64,000 nt of DNA from assembly GCA_965243135.1 (NCBI GenBank), contig OZ251539.1, positions 1,696,001-1,760,000 on the forward strand, written 5' to 3'. Source of the DNA: Alphaproteobacteria bacterium. GTDB taxonomy: Bacteria > Pseudomonadota > Alphaproteobacteria > MPNO01 > UBA830. Every line of letters starts with the position of its first letter. Positions within the stretch are counted from its first letter, which is position 1. The notes beneath the pieces were generated by a model, which saw nothing but the letters and a program-made list of their open reading frames with translations, did not search any database and was not told the origin of the DNA. The translations under genes were made by a program, and so were the position numbers. Shown here piece by piece: positions 5,079 through 21,518 of this stretch.

Positions 5079-5774
5079 TCAGCGAAGCAATATCTCCGTC
5101 AGTTCGTCCGGCATTTCGATCATCGCGTCGTGCAGACACGGCAACGCGAACGAGCGCCATCCGGGATGGTCGGCGTAGAGTTCGTGAAATTGCCGGAACG
5201 GCGAGGGTTCGTGCCTTTCGCAGAGAATGTAGTCCCTTCGGGCGACTTCGGCCTCCCTGCCCGATAGGGTTACGCCGTTCCCGAAACACGTCGCCGGATG
5301 CGGCGTGCAGCGGGACTTGAGCCATTCGATCCTTTCCGGATCGGATGTCCAACGATGAAATCCGGTCGGGTCGACGTGGCCGTCCGGTCGCCGGGCGGCC
5401 GCCACTTCCGCCGCGCGCGCCGGGGTCGACAGCGCGTTCGCCGGCGCGCCGCTGACGACCGGCACGAAAGCGTCGAGGTAAACGAGGCGGCCGATTCGTT
5501 CCGGGACGGCGGAGGCGACGCCCGTGATCACCATGCCGCCGTAGGAGTGTCCGACCAGAACGACGTCGTTCAGATTGCGCCAGCGGATCAGGTTTTCCAC
5601 GTCCTTGACGTGGGTGTCGGGTCCCGTCACGCAATCGATCAAGTGACTCCTCTCCCCCAGTCCGGTCAAGGTCGGCGCGAACGTCGCGCGGCCGCGGTTT
5701 CGGAGGCGGTCCGCCACTTCGTCCCAACACCAGCCGCCGTGCCATCCGCCGTGAACCAGGACGAACGCCGCCAT
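5079..5774 (-). CDS. alpha/beta hydrolase (esterase, SABP2/AB_hydrolase_6-like)
   Basis: MAAFVLVHGGWHGGWCW, GHSYGG nucleophile elbow, C-terminal HDAM; start overlaps the stop of the TRAP permease. Confidence 0.9.
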   Translation of the reverse strand: MAAFVLVHGGWHGGWCWDEVADRLRNRGRATFAPTLTGLGERSHLIDCVTGPDTHVKDVENLIRWRNLNDVVLVGHSYGGMVITGVASAVPERIGRLVYLDAFVPVVSGAPANALSTPARAAEVAAARRPDGHVDPTGFHRWTSDPERIEWLKSRCTPHPATCFGNGVTLSGREAEVARRDYILCERHEPSPFRQFHELYADHPGWRSFALPCLHDAMIEMPDELTEILLR

Positions 5775-8095
5775 CAGGCCCTTCCCTTTCGCGCCCAATG
5801 CCATGCCAGGAACGCCGCGGCCGCGGCGATCGCGGGAACGTGCGCCATGCCGTCCCCGGCGATCACGAGGGCCGCCAGGACCAGTCTGACGGCGCATTCC
5901 CAAGCGGCGAGCCGATGCCGGTCGAAACGGGCGAGCGCGCTCGCCATGAGGTAGAGCGCGAGGACGAGGCGGGCGCCCAGAAAACCCAATCCGCCGAAGT
6001 CGATTTTCCCCGTGTAGCCTTCGAGGTAACCGCCGGCGCCGTCGGCGGGATCCAGCACCGCCGCGTCGATCAGGAGTAGTTCCGGATAGAAGGCGAAGAC
6101 GAACGGAATCACGAACATCACGATCCCCGATCGCACCGCGGAAAATCCGGTGGCCATCGGGTCGGCCTTGGTTATCGAAGCGGCGGCGAAGGCCGCGATC
6201 GCGACAGGCGGCGTTATGGCCGACGCCACGGCGAAGTAGAAGATGAACATGTGGGCGGTGAAGCTTGCGATTCCCAGCCCGACGAGCATCGGACCCATCA
6301 GGAGCGCGACGTTTATGTAAGCCGGGACGGTCGGCATTCCCATTCCCAGCAGAACCGCCATCGCCATCGTGACGAGCAGCGCGGAAAAGAGAAAAACGCT
6401 CGTGCTTCCGGCCTCCAGCTGGAAGCCTCGAAGCCAGATCAACAGGTCGCGCGCGATGAAGTCCGAGAGGCCGGTGAAGTTCAGGCAGAAGTCGATGACG
6501 GAAACCGCGAGAAACATCAGGTAAAGGGTCGAAACGAGAATCCCCGCGTCTCCCAAGGCTCTGGCGAGCTTTATCGGCGCCGCCCGGACTTCGCGGTCGA
6601 GAAACAGCAAGCCCATCAGGAAAAACATGGCCCACCAGCCCGCCGAACCGGCGTCGCCGGCCGAATTCTGCAGCAGCTGAAACGCCCACGGCATGTCTTG
6701 CACCCGGCAAACGCCGTCGATCCGGACTCCGTCCAACCCGAACAGCCAACCGAGCGCGCCGCAGCCGATCGCCTCCTTGGGGGTCAGCAGCAGAAGCAGA
6801 ATCAGCAATATGGGTCCGAAGATCATCAGCAGGTGCAATCTGTCGTCCCGCGTCAGCCGCATGTCGTCGGTCGCCTCGCCGACCGCTTCGATGCCCTGGC
6901 TGCGCGCCTGGAACGCCGCCGTCAGGAACAGGCACCCGAAATAAGCGATCGCCGGTATGGACGCGGCGATGATCACTTCGCGATACGGGACGAGAGTGAG
7001 CGCGGACAGCACGAAAGCCGCGACCCCCATCACGGGCGGCATGACCTGCCCGCCGGACGAGGCCGCCGCCTCGACGCCGCCCGCGAAAGTCCTGTTGAAA
7101 CCGCGCCGGATCATCATTGGAATCGTCAGCACGCCGGTGGACATCACGTTCACGATGGGACCGCCGGAGATCGTTCCGAACATGGCGGAAGACACGATCG
7201 CGGCGTGGGCCGGTCCGCCCCGCATGCGCCGCGTCCACAGGAACGCGATCTTGATGAGCGCCTGCCCGCCCGCGGAAATTCCGAACAGGCTGCCCAGTAC
7301 GATATAGGGGAAGACCGTGTTCATGAGGATGTCCATGAACCGGCCGAGAAGGCCCTGGCCATTGCTGACGAGGATGTCGTGAACTTTGGGCCTGCCGTCG
7401 ATCAGCTGGCGGGGTTCGCCGCCCAGCTTGGTCATCAGGTACTTGTTGATGTCGTCGGCGCCGTAGACGTACCAGACCAGCACGGTGAGCATCGTGTAGG
7501 CGGCGATGGCGATGGCCACCCCGACGAGCGGAAGCCCCCAGACCTTGACGTTGTACGCCAGGAAAACCGTGATCGCGACGCCCACGACCGCGAACAACCA
7601 TACTCCGAGCGTGTTCACGCACTGGGGATCTTCCACGCTGTTCGGAACGGGCAGTCCGAAGGATCTCGCGAATTCCTGTTCTTCCTTGAGAGACCTTGCG
7701 ATCAATTCCGCTCTCTCTCCCGTCAGCTGATCGACCAGGCAGACCGCTTCGATTTCCACGAGGTAAGTCATGCCGATCGCCAGCGCCATCGCGACGAGAG
7801 CGACGTCCATCGCCATGCTCGCGGCCTGGGTCGCGGCCGACCGGTTCCGGAACGACCGGAAAAAAGAGTGCTTGAGGGCCACGACCGTCATCATGATCAC
7901 GAACGCGGCCGGATGCAGATACTCGTACGAGAACTTCCGGATGGCGAACGTCGGATCGCCCGCCGCGTCGCGAACCCAATTGTCGAGACCCGGGAGAGCC
8001 GGGACGTTGTTCACGATCCCTATCGCCACGAGAAACAGCCCGAGCGCCAGGGCAGCGACTTCGCCGGTCGCCAGCTTCGGGTTCGGTAGCGACAT
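5774..8095 (-). CDS. TAXI-TRAP transporter fused 4TM/12TM permease
   Basis: GGPAHAAIVSS, EAAASSGGQVMPPVMG, GMGMPTVPAY, SAITPPVA motifs; many TM helices. Confidence 0.93.
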   Translation of the reverse strand: MSLPNPKLATGEVAALALGLFLVAIGIVNNVPALPGLDNWVRDAAGDPTFAIRKFSYEYLHPAAFVIMMTVVALKHSFFRSFRNRSAATQAASMAMDVALVAMALAIGMTYLVEIEAVCLVDQLTGERAELIARSLKEEQEFARSFGLPVPNSVEDPQCVNTLGVWLFAVVGVAITVFLAYNVKVWGLPLVGVAIAIAAYTMLTVLVWYVYGADDINKYLMTKLGGEPRQLIDGRPKVHDILVSNGQGLLGRFMDILMNTVFPYIVLGSLFGISAGGQALIKIAFLWTRRMRGGPAHAAIVSSAMFGTISGGPIVNVMSTGVLTIPMMIRRGFNRTFAGGVEAAASSGGQVMPPVMGVAAFVLSALTLVPYREVIIAASIPAIAYFGCLFLTAAFQARSQGIEAVGEATDDMRLTRDDRLHLLMIFGPILLILLLLLTPKEAIGCGALGWLFGLDGVRIDGVCRVQDMPWAFQLLQNSAGDAGSAGWWAMFFLMGLLFLDREVRAAPIKLARALGDAGILVSTLYLMFLAVSVIDFCLNFTGLSDFIARDLLIWLRGFQLEAGSTSVFLFSALLVTMAMAVLLGMGMPTVPAYINVALLMGPMLVGLGIASFTAHMFIFYFAVASAITPPVAIAAFAAASITKADPMATGFSAVRSGIVMFVIPFVFAFYPELLLIDAAVLDPADGAGGYLEGYTGKIDFGGLGFLGARLVLALYLMASALARFDRHRLAAWECAVRLVLAALVIAGDGMAHVPAIAAAAAFLAWHWARKGRA

Positions 8096-13054: not shown

Positions 13055-13949
13055 GCTGGCGAGACACGCGGCGCGGGCGCCTCGTTTGACTATAGATTTC
13101 GAATTTGCGGAGCGGCGGGATGTAGGGCCCGGAAAATGGAAGGCTGGAACGCTGCCGAACATATTTTGCGCATTCGTGAACAGCCACTTCTTTGAGAAAG
13201 ACAATGCGGATGAGGAAAAGGCGAGCCGGTTTTGCGCCGACGCTTTTCTGATATCGAGCTCTCTTGAGCTGAGTTTCGAATTGTCCTCCCTTTGTCGATT
13301 CTGAAACGCAATGTTCCGCCCTGGACCGAAGCCGACGCGGCTTGGCGCAAGCCGGACAATGATCCGTTGTGGACGGAAGGGAACATGCCCCATGTTTCGC
13401 CCCCGGGAACCGGCAGTCGCAACATACTGCTTATTTACAGTCCCGTTATTCTCTTCGATCAGTGACGGTCGCAGTTTCTTCAAGAAGAGGGACGATCTCG
13501 ATTTCAGCGTTCCGGCCTAAGGTGTTTTGGTTCTTGGCTTACACGACGCTTAGCAAACGAACGGATTGCCCTAGCGTGAACGTGGTTCGGAAGTACTGTC
13601 TGAACAGCGGTCGGATTTCGTTCGTAGGGCAAGATTCCGCATCGCGGCACTTGTGGAACGTGCCCACTCCTACGGACATTCGTTTGGTGTGGTCAATGTG
13701 GTCGATGTCGATGCCTTTCCAAGAAATTCGAAAAATTGCTAAGTGTCTCTACTTCGTGGTTGCAGCGACCTAGCTAATTGCTACGTCAACTTGGACGGCT
13801 TTCGGAGGCAGAAAAAGCCTATAGATGATAGCTTATTGATAATAAGGGTTTTGAAATAGGCTCGGACCTGCGGTCGAAATGCGAGCGAACGCAAGCCTCA
13901 ACACAGGCGATGTGAAGCTGCTTCTCTCAAACCGAGGAGAAACCGCCAA

Positions 13950-14311
13950 CGGTCGGAAAGTGACGAAGTGTGTGCGCATTTCAAACAGATATCTATGGGA
14001 TGAATTGAGCCTTGCATATCTTGATCCGAGAACGAAAAGTTATGCGCGGGCGAAGGCATGATTACGGCCGAAAGCCGGATGCGGGACTTCCGTATGTCCG
14101 GCTTAGCGAGTAGGGATAGCGCTTCATCAAAATAAAATTTTAGTTTTTTCGCGCAGTATTCGCCTACGAGGATCCCAACTCAGCTTATGGCCTCATCCAA
14201 AGACTGCATTGTGATGAAGCACTAGAAACGTGGGCGTAGGATTGGGCCTGGAGCGAAAGCGACGGAACATCCACCGGACCCTACCGCTAACGCGCCAGTC
14301 CTCGACTCTAC
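13950..14311 (+). mobile_element. Group II intron 3' remnant (RT/maturase C-terminus, domain V, domain VI)
   Basis: Peptide ...VRISNRYLWDELSLAYLDPRTKSYARAKA* resembles intron-encoded protein C-termini; then DV-like GAAAGCCGGATGCGGGACTTCCGTATGTCCGGCTT; DVI ends CGCGCCAGTCCTCGACTCTAC. Confidence 0.8.
14119..14222. mobile_element. MITE (~104 bp) with 15-bp terminal inverted repeats and TA target duplication
   Basis: Left GCGCTTCATCAAAAT versus right-end reverse complement GTGCTTCATCACAAT (13/15), flanked by TA at 14117-14118 and 14223-14224. Confidence 0.7.
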
Positions 14312-14413
14312 TCCACGTCCGACAATCCGAATCCATTTGTGTTGTAATTCGACAACATCAGCGCGGATGCCGCCGAGGACCTCCAGCCCATCGGCATTTG
14401 AGAAGTCATCCTG

Positions 14414-14977
14414 TCAGTTTGGATCTTTATTGGAACATGCATGCCAGCATCTTTCCTCACAATCGTGCCAGCAGTTTTGCTCGCCCGTCCGATCCATCCT
14501 TTCCCTGAACGTTTCCTTGTATAAGAGCTTTGTTTTTTCGAAGGCCCTTTTCAGGTTTGCGGCATCCTCTTCTCCTCTCATGCCAAAATAAGGGAAGTGA
14601 TGAAAATATCCCCCAAAAATGTTATCACTATCACGGCAATAAGCACGTGTATCCAAGATGTGATAATGCCACATTGTGTCCATGATTTTGTTTGGGACAA
14701 TTGAGTGATCTGGGTAAGGAAATCTGCGGCACAAAGTAAGATATCTCTTGTACTCTATCTCTCCATCATCACATTGTTCTTTTGTCCAACTAACACCTTC
14801 CTCAACTTCCATCATCTTCGTTTTCACCATTTCAAGATCGATTTCAGCAATATCAGCATCGATGCGTTTGGATAGAAGAAATTCTATTCTTGGCATACTG
14901 ATCTTGTTCGTCATGAACACCGGATTGGGCAAGGAATTTCGGGTTTCCGTTCCGATTTTTTGAGTTAGTCCCGTCAT
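14414..14977 (-). CDS. GRDP/DUF1399-like ('glycine-rich domain-containing') protein with Cys-rich C-terminal tail
   Basis: EYKRYL, IVPNKIMDTMWHYHILDTRAY, YFHHFPYFG motifs; tail CWHDCEERCWHAC; RBS AGGAG. Confidence 0.75.
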   Translation of the reverse strand: MTGLTQKIGTETRNSLPNPVFMTNKISMPRIEFLLSKRIDADIAEIDLEMVKTKMMEVEEGVSWTKEQCDDGEIEYKRYLTLCRRFPYPDHSIVPNKIMDTMWHYHILDTRAYCRDSDNIFGGYFHHFPYFGMRGEEDAANLKRAFEKTKLLYKETFRERMDRTGEQNCWHDCEERCWHACSNKDPN

Positions 14978-14989
14978 GGTTCATTCTCC

Positions 14990-15634
14990 TTAGTTAGACA
15001 GGTTGCTAGATGGGTAACGAGTGATCCAATAGCGCTTCAAAAAACGCTTCGGATCAGAAAACGCGTGACGACCATGCAATATTCTTCCGTTATCGACTAC
15101 CAACACATCGTCTGTAAGCATTTTAAACTCTGCAATCTTACATTCAGGCAAATTTTCATGAAACCGTGTGACCGATTCCTTTTGTAAAGGCGACAAATTA
15201 TGTTCCCGAACTAACCAGAAACTATAATAGATTTTAACCACTCCGTTCGCTATCTTTACCAGCGGGTGGTTCCCCTCATCATTTGCAAATACTTTATGTT
15301 CAAATAGATATATACTGGACAAGGCTTGCCGTTGTATTGGCGACAATTTTAGATACGCTGCTCGGGCATCTGCAAGGACAGTTTCACCACCTTCTTTTGA
15401 CGATCTAATGCAGATCCAAGCGACGTAATCTGCCTTCGGATGATCTGTATGGAAGCCTAGTGCCCGATTAGAGGTAACCAGATTCTCATTTTTCAAGTTT
15501 ACTTTCACATCAGTGATGTAGATTATTTCGCCCAATTGATTTGCAATGATATCCAATCCTTCCTGTCCCACACGCTCAAGAAGTGCGTACCCCATTTCAT
15601 GTAATTGTGCCATTGTACCATTTATCTTCATCAA
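14990..15634 (-). CDS. TauD/TfdA-family Fe(II)/2-oxoglutarate dioxygenase
   Basis: HxD (FHTDH), GGETVLAD, DNGRILHGR and the distal R-x-L-x-R motif. Confidence 0.85.
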   Translation of the reverse strand: MMKINGTMAQLHEMGYALLERVGQEGLDIIANQLGEIIYITDVKVNLKNENLVTSNRALGFHTDHPKADYVAWICIRSSKEGGETVLADARAAYLKLSPIQRQALSSIYLFEHKVFANDEGNHPLVKIANGVVKIYYSFWLVREHNLSPLQKESVTRFHENLPECKIAEFKMLTDDVLVVDNGRILHGRHAFSDPKRFLKRYWITRYPSSNLSN

Positions 15635-15685
15635 TTTCTCGTTAGCTCAGTTAATGTCCGTTCGTGAAGTGACAGCCTATTCGTC

Positions 15686-15707
15686 GAGGGGTCGCTTTCG
15701 ACCCCTT
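15686..15707. terminator. Hairpin upstream of the dioxygenase gene
   Basis: GGGGTCG-CTTT-CGACCCC inverted repeat. Confidence 0.35.
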
Positions 15708-16449
15708 CAAAGATCTGGCGGCGTCTTGGATCGGGAGAGGGCGTTCGTTCCGGGCATCGGATTTGTTCGGTCCCCCCATGCACGGCTCCTCCGTCGGGCA
15801 GGCCCGGCAACGGAAGGTTTCGAGCGGTATTCCGCACGGAAGGTCTCGGGCGGATCGGACGCGATGCGCAGGGATCGGTGTCGATCGCCGGGCAGTCGTC
15901 GTTCGAACGGAGCGAGGAGTAGGCGAGAGCGGTGCCCCGGGATCGGCTCCCATCAATCGTCAGGGTCGGGTTACGACAGTGTGCTCCGAGGTCACCGAGC
16001 CTGTCCGGTAGCGCGCTCTTCCGAGTCGCGATGCCGGAGCCGGAGACAGCGAGCGATGAACTCGTTCCGGCGAGGGTCGACAGCGACGAGTTCGGACATC
16101 GGCAAGACGTTGGGGTGGGCAGGAAAGGCTGTTGGTCGGTCGCGGACGCGCTGACCTCATGCACACCCACCCTTGACGACAGCCGTTCAAAATCGCTCAA
16201 CACTGTCCGCATAGAATCACTTTCGACCCGTGTAGATGGAAAAATAGCACAACCGCTTCGTGGAAGTAACAATTATTTGGCGGGAACCTTGGTACGGTCC
16301 CTCCTGGAAACGCGACTACGACCGTCGCCCTACATGGAGCGGATTTACAGCTCCGCCAACAACGCTTAGGATAGGAACGTTCGTTCCGGCAGGGAACGAT
16401 GCCCGCGACAGAGTCGCCGAACTCGCCCACCGAGCAGGGATCCCGGGAC

Positions 16450-19634: not shown

Positions 19635-20098
19635 TTCGGACCTCGTTCACGATCAACGGCCGGCATCTGTCCGCCGAGGTGGAGCCGCGCCTGTCCCTCG
19701 CCGACTTCCTTCGGGATCGCGAGGATCTGACCGGAACTCACACCGCTTGCGAACACGGCGTTTGCGGCGCGTGCACGCTGTTGATCGACGGCAAGCCCGC
19801 CCGTTCCTGCATAACGCTGGCCGCCGCGGTCGACGGAAGCGAGATAAGGACCGTCGAAGGCTACGACGGCGATGCGGAGATGGCCGCCATCCGCAAGGCC
19901 TTCAAGGAAGCGCATGCGGTTCAGTGCGGATACTGCACGCCTGGCATGCTTGCCACCGCCTACGACATCGTAAACCGGTTGCCCGATGCCGATCGCGATC
20001 GCATCAAGCGCGAACTGGCGGGCAATCTTTGTCGTTGCACCGGCTACCTTCAGATCGTCGACGCAATCCAGCTGGCGCTTCGCGAAATTCACGGCTGA
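19631..20098 (+). CDS. Mo-hydroxylase [2Fe-2S] subunit (CoxS-like)
   Basis: CEHGVCGAC, QCGYCTPG, NLCRCTGY. Confidence 0.95.
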   Translation: MIRTSFTINGRHLSAEVEPRLSLADFLRDREDLTGTHTACEHGVCGACTLLIDGKPARSCITLAAAVDGSEIRTVEGYDGDAEMAAIRKAFKEAHAVQCGYCTPGMLATAYDIVNRLPDADRDRIKRELAGNLCRCTGYLQIVDAIQLALREIHG

Positions 20099-20109
20099 CA
20101 GCCCCGCGA

Positions 20110-20138
20110 CGCCCGCCGCCGAAATCGGCGGCGGGCGC
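20110..20138 (+). terminator. Hairpin after the Mo-hydroxylase operon
   Basis: CGCCCGCCGCCGA-AA-TCGGCGGCGGGCG perfect stem. Confidence 0.6.
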
Positions 20139-20693
20139 TACCGAACCGACGGCAACCTCGTTTTTTCGCAGCCCGGAGCGGCGCTTCGAAAGTTAATTTT
20201 TCAGGTCATAATTGGTATACAGCCATTTGAATTCGATGATTTTCTGTCCGGTTCGAAGATCTCGTTCCGTATGCGGACTGGCTTGGTTTGAATTATGCAC
20301 GCTTCCCTTGCGCAGAGTTGTTCGACGACGCGAAGGAACGGTGCGGTTCCGAGAACGATAAAAATCGGCATTACATCAAAAAATTAGGGACAATCTCTGC
20401 GCCCGCTGGTCATCGCGTGCCCTACGCGAATCGACCCTTCGAATTTCGTAAACGAAGGTCTCGCGCGAACGGGCGAGCGCGCCGTCGCAGTCGCAGGCGG
20501 CCCCGGTCGCGCACGATTCCGGTCGTTTTTCTCGCGCGCCGGCCAATGGGCCGGCGGTCTCGAAGCGAGTCTCCTCGAGCGTTCCGGAGCCTCGCTGGAA
20601 CGCATCCGCCCGGACGCGCAAGGGCGCGCTGGAAAGTGGCGGAGGAAGCGCTTACGCTGTATAATATTGGACGCCGCAAGCTGGGAAAGATAA

Positions 20694-21441: not shown

Positions 21442-21518
<77 letters not shown>

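Follow-up and report, generated by a model that had tools for sequence, protein, structure and literature searches.

In plants, burpitide (BURP) cyclases act on multi-core peptides that are either fused to the enzyme or split from it (PMC12186524), and one burpitide pathway, that of the cyclopeptide alkaloids, adds an Fe(II)/2-oxoglutarate (Fe/2OG) enzyme and an S-adenosylmethionine (SAM) methyltransferase (PMC12871766). Borosins of the OphMA type are made by an enzyme acting on its own C-terminal core, and both split and fused forms occur in bacteria (PMC10549244, PMC11395268). MNIO (DUF692) proteins are non-haem metal enzymes that oxidatively transform cysteines in ribosomal peptides, with products that often bind copper (PMC12452194). 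We describe a two-gene cassette found in a stretch of 64,000 nucleotides (the window) of an alphaproteobacterial genome assembly (GCA_965243135.1, contig OZ251539.1, positions 1,696,001 to 1,760,000). It encodes a TauD-type oxygenase followed by a His-rich protein (hereafter, the partner) of the family PF27765 ‘UCP032817-like’, which ends in a short Cys-containing tail. By its layout the system would belong with the enzyme-fused modified-peptide systems, and it would be built on a domain of new fold. The reading that we favour, with a probability of roughly 0.45, sees in the His-rich domain a metal-dependent enzyme that modifies peptides, in the tail its substrate and in the TauD-type oxygenase a tailoring enzyme specific to this branch of the family.

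The likeness to plant BURP cyclases lies in a putatively metal-dependent enzyme domain fused to, or split from, short and possibly tandem core motifs (PMC12186524), and the Fe/2OG enzyme and methyltransferase of the burpitide pathway (PMC12871766) find a parallel in the TauD-type oxygenase of the window system and in an Azospirillum operon with methyltransferase and TauD genes. The window system differs in being bacterial and in lacking a BURP domain (the partner gave neither a Pfam match nor a PDB fold match to one), and its core is all-helical without any match in PDB. Moreover, crosslink motifs of the plant enzymes involve Tyr/Trp side chains, whereas the tails of PF27765 proteins recur in Cys, as aromatic-Cys units; the tail linked to the oxygenase is fixed and not multi-core. 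With borosins it would share an enzyme acting on its own C-terminal core, but the enzyme is a SAM methyltransferase in one case and a His-rich domain of new fold in the other, and nothing in our data points to backbone methylation. The similarity to MNIO systems would consist in the handling of Cys-containing ribosomal peptides by non-haem metal enzymes (PMC12452194); the fold is different, however, and we do not claim membership. Neither DUF692 nor MNIO partner domains were detected in the proteins of the window, nor did a scan of the neighbouring genes show any for 25 of the 80 related loci described below. The MNIO systems whose chemistry serves for comparison are those of methanobactins, bufferins and chryseobasins, and CPxAC-like repeats in two distant PF27765 proteins (P0281 and P0282) resemble the chryseobasin core.

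Oxygenase and partner genes occur as a linked pair

Searches with the partner protein yielded 2934 homologues of similar length (E<=1e-3), 120 of which were listed. Among contigs representing one genome per species, 500 out of 545 candidate stretches encode a relative of the partner, and 80 loci were kept. An oxygenase homologue adjoins the partner in 79 of these 80 loci (tblastn), and in 77 it is located directly upstream on the same strand; it lies downstream on the same strand in locus L002, and the two genes are convergent in L007. The lone exception, L024, has an open reading frame (ORF) of approximately 340 aa (L024 3-1031) that, at the edge of the contig, stops 10 bp short of the partner gene and that, judged by eye, probably encodes an ISL3-like transposase. 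The two proteins are furthermore fused in frame in six of the 80 loci, and single proteins of approximately 390 aa with both PF02668 and PF27765 make up 43 of the 63 longer homologues. All of these fusions have the oxygenase at the N-terminal side and the tail at the extreme C-terminus. Pairwise identities of oxygenase and partner correlate with each other (r = 0.83, 3081 pairs), the partner core being the better conserved of the two (mean identity 0.61 vs 0.42 for the oxygenase). Because of this adjacency, the frequency of fusions and the correlated divergence, we conclude that the oxygenase and its partner are functionally linked. An original prediction, made from the sequence of the window, had treated the two genes as one system, and their co-occurrence across these loci agrees with it.

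The carriers of the pair span at least eight phyla, with Bacteroidota (49 of 80 loci) followed by Pseudomonadota (14), Spirochaetota (4), Verrucomicrobiota (4), Cyanobacteriota (3) and one locus each in Calditrichota, Myxococcota and Chloroflexota; the phylum was unassigned for three loci. Carriers available in culture include Marivirga sericea DSM 4125, Winogradskyella sediminis DSM 28134, Gaetbulibacter saemankumensis DSM 17032 and Raineya orbicola. The nearest genome relatives of the window locus are gammaproteobacterial metagenome-assembled genomes and one from an alphaproteobacterium, and the names of several of these (e.g., Spongiihabitans) suggest sponge symbionts. Of 69 loci, 18 have a pair whose GC fraction is more than 0.05 below that of the flanks, and in seven it is above; these differences fit repeated horizontal transfer. 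No third gene common across phyla was found among the 567 neighbouring ORFs of the 80 loci. The commonest cluster of neighbours, a LytS-type histidine kinase with a response regulator, was present in 10-11 of the 80 loci, all of them from Bacteroidota; these genes are immediately upstream of the pair (at about 5700-7240) in L017, L021, L022, L025 and in six to seven further loci. An ORF of approximately 100 aa with the motif F/YKTEHFLxRQW was seen downstream of the pair in six loci.

The tail of the oxygenase-linked branch

Both CX3C motifs are present in 119 of the 120 partner homologues listed, and in all 80 loci the tail is of the CX3CX3CX3C type with a first motif that is exactly CWHDC, the W-H-D residues between the cysteines being as invariant as the cysteines themselves. 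The second motif is somewhat more relaxed and reads, in 81 sequences, C-WH-x-C (53), C-WN-x-C (16) or C-HN-x-C (11), with one unparsed; about 12 changes between these states were counted on a quick FastTree tree. The tail had predicted local distance difference test (pLDDT) values of approximately 47-55 when the partner was modelled alone with AlphaFold. A tail that is invariant in sequence yet modelled with low confidence fits a flexible, substrate-like segment. No Fe-S family of Pfam matched the partner, and the spacing of its tail cysteines (CX3CX3CX3C) is not that of canonical ferredoxins (CX2CX2CX3C).

The original prediction had suggested that the CWHxC tail could be a fused, repeated core peptide or, alternatively, a metal-binding tail. 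The idea of a fused core peptide is strengthened by family members whose Cys motifs occur in tandem, or which have a small peptide gene next to them (see below). Variation in copy number was absent: there are always two motifs in the oxygenase branch, and such a fixed two-motif tail is less suggestive of a ‘repeated core’ than of one fixed bicyclic core, of a cofactor bound to the protein or of a metal site. As a separate observation, the proteins P0220 and P0221 have two tandem core domains, each with its own Cys tail, the first of the CWHDC...CWHxC type and the second basic and of the CxxACxxxC type.

Tails in the wider PF27765 family

A profile search of 1.84 billion representatives resulted in 10,959 clusters (50% identity) with E<=1e-3, 4514 with E<=1e-10 and 976 with E<=1e-30; the profile took in some tail columns, and the weakest of the 10,959 matches may reflect low complexity. 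We classified 144 new representatives among the best 150, using a heuristic of our own applied to the region that starts 40 residues past the core motif. The core motif HHxPYxG was present in 141 of the 144. Tandem arrays of three or more (W/Y/F)-Cys motifs, with a median of 7 and a maximum of 13, were found in 48 representatives, other repeated Cys motifs in six, and Ala-aromatic-Ser repeats without Cys in a further six; at least three tandem motifs of any class occur in 60 of the 144. Non-repeat tails with at least two Cys account for 64 representatives, and a single one has the CX3CX3CX3C type of the window. The remainder had other tails or fewer than two Cys (12), no tail (4) or no recognisable core motif (3). 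An RPxL-like motif near the C-terminus, which the window protein does not have, is shared by 62 of the 144. Examples of repeats are A-Y-C-S-V-A in about 17 copies, A-L-C-G-V in about 13, A-W-C-S-x-E/D in about 17 and A-M-K-C-P-Q-A-C-P-N-P-G in four, and Gly/Cys-rich ends were also seen. Distant family members (P0272, P0274, P0275, P0279, P0281, P0282 and P0288-P0431) have kept the core and have entirely different tails, with tandem Ala-(W/Y/F)-Cys-x repeats that reach 13 copies or more and, in a minority, Ser instead of Cys.

Several of these relatives are encoded on plasmids. The gene of a Variovorax plasmid has three AWCSLEA units and that of a Cupriavidus plasmid five PAYCAR units. In plasmids of Halomonas and P. 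savastanoi, a stand-alone core gene and a gene of approximately 440 aa have directly upstream of them a small ORF for a Gly/His/Cys/Trp peptide, with the end GGGHCQGGGSW / GGGGHCQGGGGW. The 440-aa gene is read as encoding a membrane protein (a weak MatE match was obtained in L081 only, and none in the other), and the three-gene unit looks like one of precursor, enzyme and exporter. The 1448A plasmid has the same layout of three genes, and the sequence of the small ORF is known for the Halomonas and P. savastanoi records alone; the stand-alone core gene recurs in further Pseudomonas plasmid records. On an Azospirillum plasmid (L085 3842-8279), a core with a different Cys tail is followed by a SAM methyltransferase, a distant TauD protein and a UvrA-like ATPase, and this operon adjoins genes for Vsr and DUF2357/PD-(D/E)XK proteins. 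For relatives with other tails, eight plasmid contexts were inspected; seven of them had no TauD gene, and the eighth is that of Azospirillum. The type of tail tracks the accompanying gene, in that the CX3CX3CX3C tail co-occurs with the oxygenase. A conserved His/Asp-rich domain, hypervariable Cys motifs and split forms would together correspond, by analogy, to the layout of enzyme-fused (or split) multi-core precursors of RiPPs (peptides made by the ribosome and modified after translation).

As for gene surroundings, both the Variovorax (L084 596-4621) and the Cupriavidus (L086 535-4549) plasmids have a large signalling gene with the multi-repeat core gene directly downstream. The signalling gene is annotated as EAL domain-containing in Cupriavidus and was read as GGDEF/EAL from the sequence in Variovorax. 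P0274 looks like an out-of-frame read-through of a signalling gene of this kind.

The core of the partner protein

The precomputed family of the window protein and of every listed homologue is PF27765. The original prediction had named the partner GRDP/DUF1399-like (PF07173), and at the gathering level this assignment did not hold: the match is sub-threshold (E 0.0029, 18.8 bits vs a cutoff of 22.7) and covers positions 99-143 of the 143 of the profile only, although both PF07173 and PF27765 are present on some partner homologues. The likeness to the plant proteins GRDP1 and GRDP2 (DUF1399, PF07173) is thus a weak local similarity around WHxHxLD, along with an apparently common arrangement in which a low-complexity tail comes after a conserved domain (PMC4299439); in the publications found, the plant proteins are characterised by phenotype only. 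No paper on UCP032817, PF27765, PIRSF032817 or IPR016997 was found in the literature covered, which left aside subscription journals and supplements. Publications on DUF1399 and GRDP-like/PF07173 proteins dealt with plant, fungal or unrelated topics and none with a function in bacteria, and RiPP-oriented full-text searches gave nothing on the PF27765 family. As the prediction had supposed, no description of the system came up in the searched literature. We know of no plant GRDP with a Cys tail or an oxygenase partner.

The AlphaFold model of the partner, built with an alignment of 49 sequences, has an all-helical core with block-mean pLDDT values of 88-98 over residues 21-160, except for one block at 80 (residues 131-140). 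No relative of this model was detected by Foldseek in PDB (best E 1.0, TM <=0.21), nor was there any in a profile search of PDB sequences. The ESM Atlas returned the partner's own family only, and no second family after its exclusion. The motifs WHYHILD, HHFPYFG and CWHDC-EER-CWHAC, pointed out in the prediction, are all in place. Residues K54, W64, Y76, R78, D100, W103, H104, H106, D109, T110, Y113, D116, H126, H127 and D138 are invariant even in distant subfamilies. Neither an HD domain nor any other known hydrolase or oxygenase signature was found in the partner by Pfam, NCBIfam and fold searches. Since these His and Asp residues are invariant, the core may be catalytic; it would then be a metal-dependent enzyme of new fold, with H104, H106, D109, H126 and H127 as candidate ligands. 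The invariance of polar core residues over subfamilies that differ in their tails fits a conserved chemistry acting on variable substrates.

The oxygenase

The oxygenase matches PF02668 (TauD) above the gathering score (E 8.9e-17, 62.3 bits, cutoff 27), as the original prediction had expected, with an alignment that spans positions 85-267 of the 267 of the profile only. In 44 aligned homologues, H61, D63, H186, R188, R196 and R200 are invariant, as is the block FYYSFWL, and H186 aligns with the distal His of gamma-butyrobetaine dioxygenase (BBOX). The HxD...H triad and the distal Arg noted in the prediction are therefore intact, and one of the invariant arginines would bind 2-oxoglutarate. Judging from these residues, the protein is a compact TauD/BBOX-like Fe(II)/2-oxoglutarate oxygenase with an intact active site. 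Equivalog models of NCBIfam (TmpA, BBOX, VioC, GntD and CAS) gave at best 45.7 bits vs a cutoff of 400, far below every cutoff, and the nearest PDB sequences are TtnM (7n7v), BBOX and TmpA. A fold match comes from the AlphaFold model of a natural fusion, P0222, and not from a model of the window protein itself: the oxygenase half of P0222 matched TmpA (6npb) with E 1.8e-13 and BBOX1 with E 2.6e-13, and superposes on TmpA, BBOX1, KDO1, AsnO, clavaminate synthase, OrfP, CarC, AtsK, TtnM and IsnB. Like TmpA, BBOX and the TauD clavaminate-synthase-like enzymes, the window oxygenase is a true PF02668 member with the triad and an Arg. It differs from TmpA/BBOX-type enzymes in size (approximately 213 vs 380 aa, their N-terminal part being absent) and in its unique, obligate pairing or fusion with PF27765.

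Proposed function and competing explanations

According to the reading that we favour, the cassette would be a horizontally mobile, self-sufficient, two-component peptide-modification module. The partner would consist of a His-rich helical enzyme domain and its own substrate-like C-terminal tail, CWHDC-x2-R-C[W/H][H/N]xC, which the His-rich domain would modify in cis or between subunits, at the cysteines. The oxygenase, as a dedicated second enzyme, would then hydroxylate or otherwise oxidise a tail residue (Trp, His or Asp), and the product may be a conserved functional entity such as a cofactor derived from a peptide, a metallophore or a redox/metal centre bound to the protein. The near-invariance of the tail across phyla makes a conserved product more likely than a variable antibiotic; the precursors of pyrroloquinoline quinone and mycofactocin are similarly conserved. 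More tentatively, PF27765/UCP032817 as a whole might be a very large and so far unrecognised superfamily of peptide-modifying metalloenzymes of new fold, the bacterial counterpart of burpitide cyclases. Its members would act on aromatic-Cys core motifs, located at their own C-terminus or encoded separately, and its TauD-linked branch would produce a single Cys/Trp/His peptide, strictly conserved and doubly modified, that serves as cofactor or metallophore and spreads as a two-gene mobile cassette.

Several observations weigh against modification of the tail. Unlike typical RiPP cores, the oxygenase-linked tail never varies in its first motif, CWHDC, or in its copy number of two motifs. In the AlphaFold model of the natural fusion (predicted TM score 0.56), the tail (pLDDT approximately 43-50) is not in the oxygenase site, and the closest solved relatives of the oxygenase, by sequence and by fold, are all small-molecule enzymes; an action of the oxygenase on the tail, as put forward in the original prediction, is on both grounds not supported. 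No protease or exporter conserved near the pair was found in the 25 loci scanned or among the 567 clustered neighbouring ORFs. Four evenly spaced Cys with His are also what a metal site would be expected to look like, and invariance together with a fixed copy number would be equally expected of a metal or redox site. The main rival is a two-component small-molecule oxygenase with a metal-binding tail, which we regard as a real but rather doubtful possibility: the TauD enzyme would hydroxylate a free metabolite resembling an amine or amino acid, whereas the His-rich protein would be a second metalloenzyme or an electron/metal partner, and the tail would serve permanently to bind Fe-S, Zn or Cu(I) or for redox purposes, and not as a substrate. 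In its favour, the oxygenase has its best relatives in NCBIfam and PDB among TmpA, gamma-butyrobetaine dioxygenase and amino-acid hydroxylases, the tail is as invariant across phyla as ligands should be, and one atlas cluster of relatives is auto-named ‘4Fe-4S ferredoxin-type domain-containing protein’. Many carriers are, judging by their names, symbionts of sponges or ascidians, hosts which are rich in betaines and taurine. PhnY/PhnZ and TmpA/TmpB provide functional analogies; the HD di-iron domain of such C-P cleavage pairs was not found in the partner, which had no fold match either. The small-molecule explanation sits less well with the invariance of the intervening W-H-D residues and not of Cys alone, with a spacing that is not that of a canonical ferredoxin, with the low AlphaFold confidence of the tail, and with a partner devoid of HD-domain or other known hydrolase/oxygenase signatures. 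No transporter or catabolic gene is conserved near the pair, and a metal site is hard to recognise in relatives of the core that have as many as 13 Cys motifs in tandem, or Ser instead of Cys.

Another possibility, which we consider improbable, is that the pair is a conflict module (anti-phage defence or toxin/immunity) that uses the oxygenase and moves in variable islands by protecting against, or attacking, competitors or phages. Neighbours in 25 loci (six each) are indeed often related to defence or mobility (DndB, AbiEii, AAA_13, NOV_C, a reverse transcriptase of 1102 aa, HNH_2, resolvase, IS605/IS240, Fic, Phd, MoxR-vWA and NucS), but this enrichment is an impression formed without a background control. 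The GC shifts of the pair relative to its flanks and the Vsr, DUF2357/PD-(D/E)XK and UvrA-like neighbours of the Azospirillum relative point the same way. In PADLOC-DB 2.0, however, the best match of the oxygenase was PDC-S05 (E 0.045, 11 bits) and the partner had none; there was no meaningful match in PHROGs and one weak match in 50,697 phage records. A role in conflict would also be compatible with the favoured peptide-modification reading, if the modified peptide were the weapon. That the locus is decaying or non-functional foreign DNA, with chance ORFs or pseudogenes in an AT-rich insert, is very improbable and already contradicted by the conservation of the proteins. In line with such an origin, the island contains neither a further gene nor any promoter or terminator that could be recognised, but the promoter scan was limited to the sigma-70 consensus. 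Both window ORFs are full length in comparison with their aligned homologues (44 for the oxygenase and 49 for the partner), every invariant residue is present, and the spacing and ribosome-binding site (RBS) are intact.

If peptide modification is indeed the function, a domain that thousands of clusters of bacterial proteins share with plant GRDPs would obtain a testable role, the modification of cysteine-containing peptides fused to it. It would represent a new RiPP-like class with new Cys/aromatic chemistry, in a minimal system of two genes that lends itself to expression, and would offer a rationale for the glycine-rich tails of plant GRDPs. The oxygenase branch is the simplest entry point, having two genes, natural single-polypeptide fusions and cultured, non-pathogenic carriers. 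Should the tail be a metal site instead, the pair would still define an uncharacterised and widely transferred two-component oxygenase system.

The locus in the window

The coordinates of the cassette are given in Table 1, together with those of the three-gene units on plasmids. The GC fraction is 0.40-0.43 across 14400-15599 vs 0.60-0.70 in the host genes on either side, and the two-gene unit as a whole has 41% GC vs 62-69% in the host, with both ORFs intact and co-oriented. The region ahead of the partner ATG reads TAAGGAGAATGAACC and contains the AGGAG. The atypical stretch is bounded by a gene for an MFS transporter and one for a molybdopterin dehydrogenase. The flanking ORFs of the island had no Pfam match, no repeats marking its ends were detected, and no tRNA or Rfam features occur close to it, the sole tRNA of the window being far off at 21442-21518. 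A DNA search with the whole island against plasmids gave no match, its flanks have no similarity to those of related loci, and neither a promoter (sigma-70 consensus scan) nor a terminator was recognised within it. As the composition is atypical, the two genes are the only ones common to related loci and the flanks match nothing, the cassette is a foreign, self-contained two-gene unit. In this, the original prediction was correct, as it was for the AT-richness relative to the host, the common orientation, the 12-bp distance and the AGGAG RBS.

Table 1. Positions of the cassette and its parts in the window, and of three-gene units with a stand-alone core on plasmids
Feature	Position	Strand	Remarks
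Oxygenase gene	14990..15634	minus	214 aa from TTG at 15634; 213 aa from ATG at 15631 (one codon in)
Oxygenase iron-ligand codons (predicted)	H61 15449-15451, D63 15443-15445, H186 15074-15076	minus	
Spacer	14978..14989	minus	12 nt; AGGAG RBS overlapping the oxygenase stop codon; sequence read directly
Partner gene	14414..14977	minus	187 aa; UCP032817-like (PF27765), distantly GRDP/DUF1399-like
Partner His-rich all-helical core, residues ~21-160	14498..14917	minus	WHYHILD (H104, H106, D109), HHFPYFG (H126, H127)
Partner C-terminal tail motif	14435..14473	minus	C169-W-H-D-C173-E-E-R-C177-W-H-A-C181; CX3CX3CX3C spacing
Compositionally atypical island	13055..16398	none	From the GC profile; the two genes are the only recognisable content
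Three-gene unit: 42-44-aa ORF, stand-alone core, ~440-aa gene	L081 4650-6631; L082 4643-6631; L089 3503-5595		Halomonas and Pseudomonas plasmids

A second, smaller dip in GC (0.54-0.57) was observed at positions 20000-20600 of the window, approximately 1 kb from the tRNA-Pro(GGG) gene, which is located on the minus strand.

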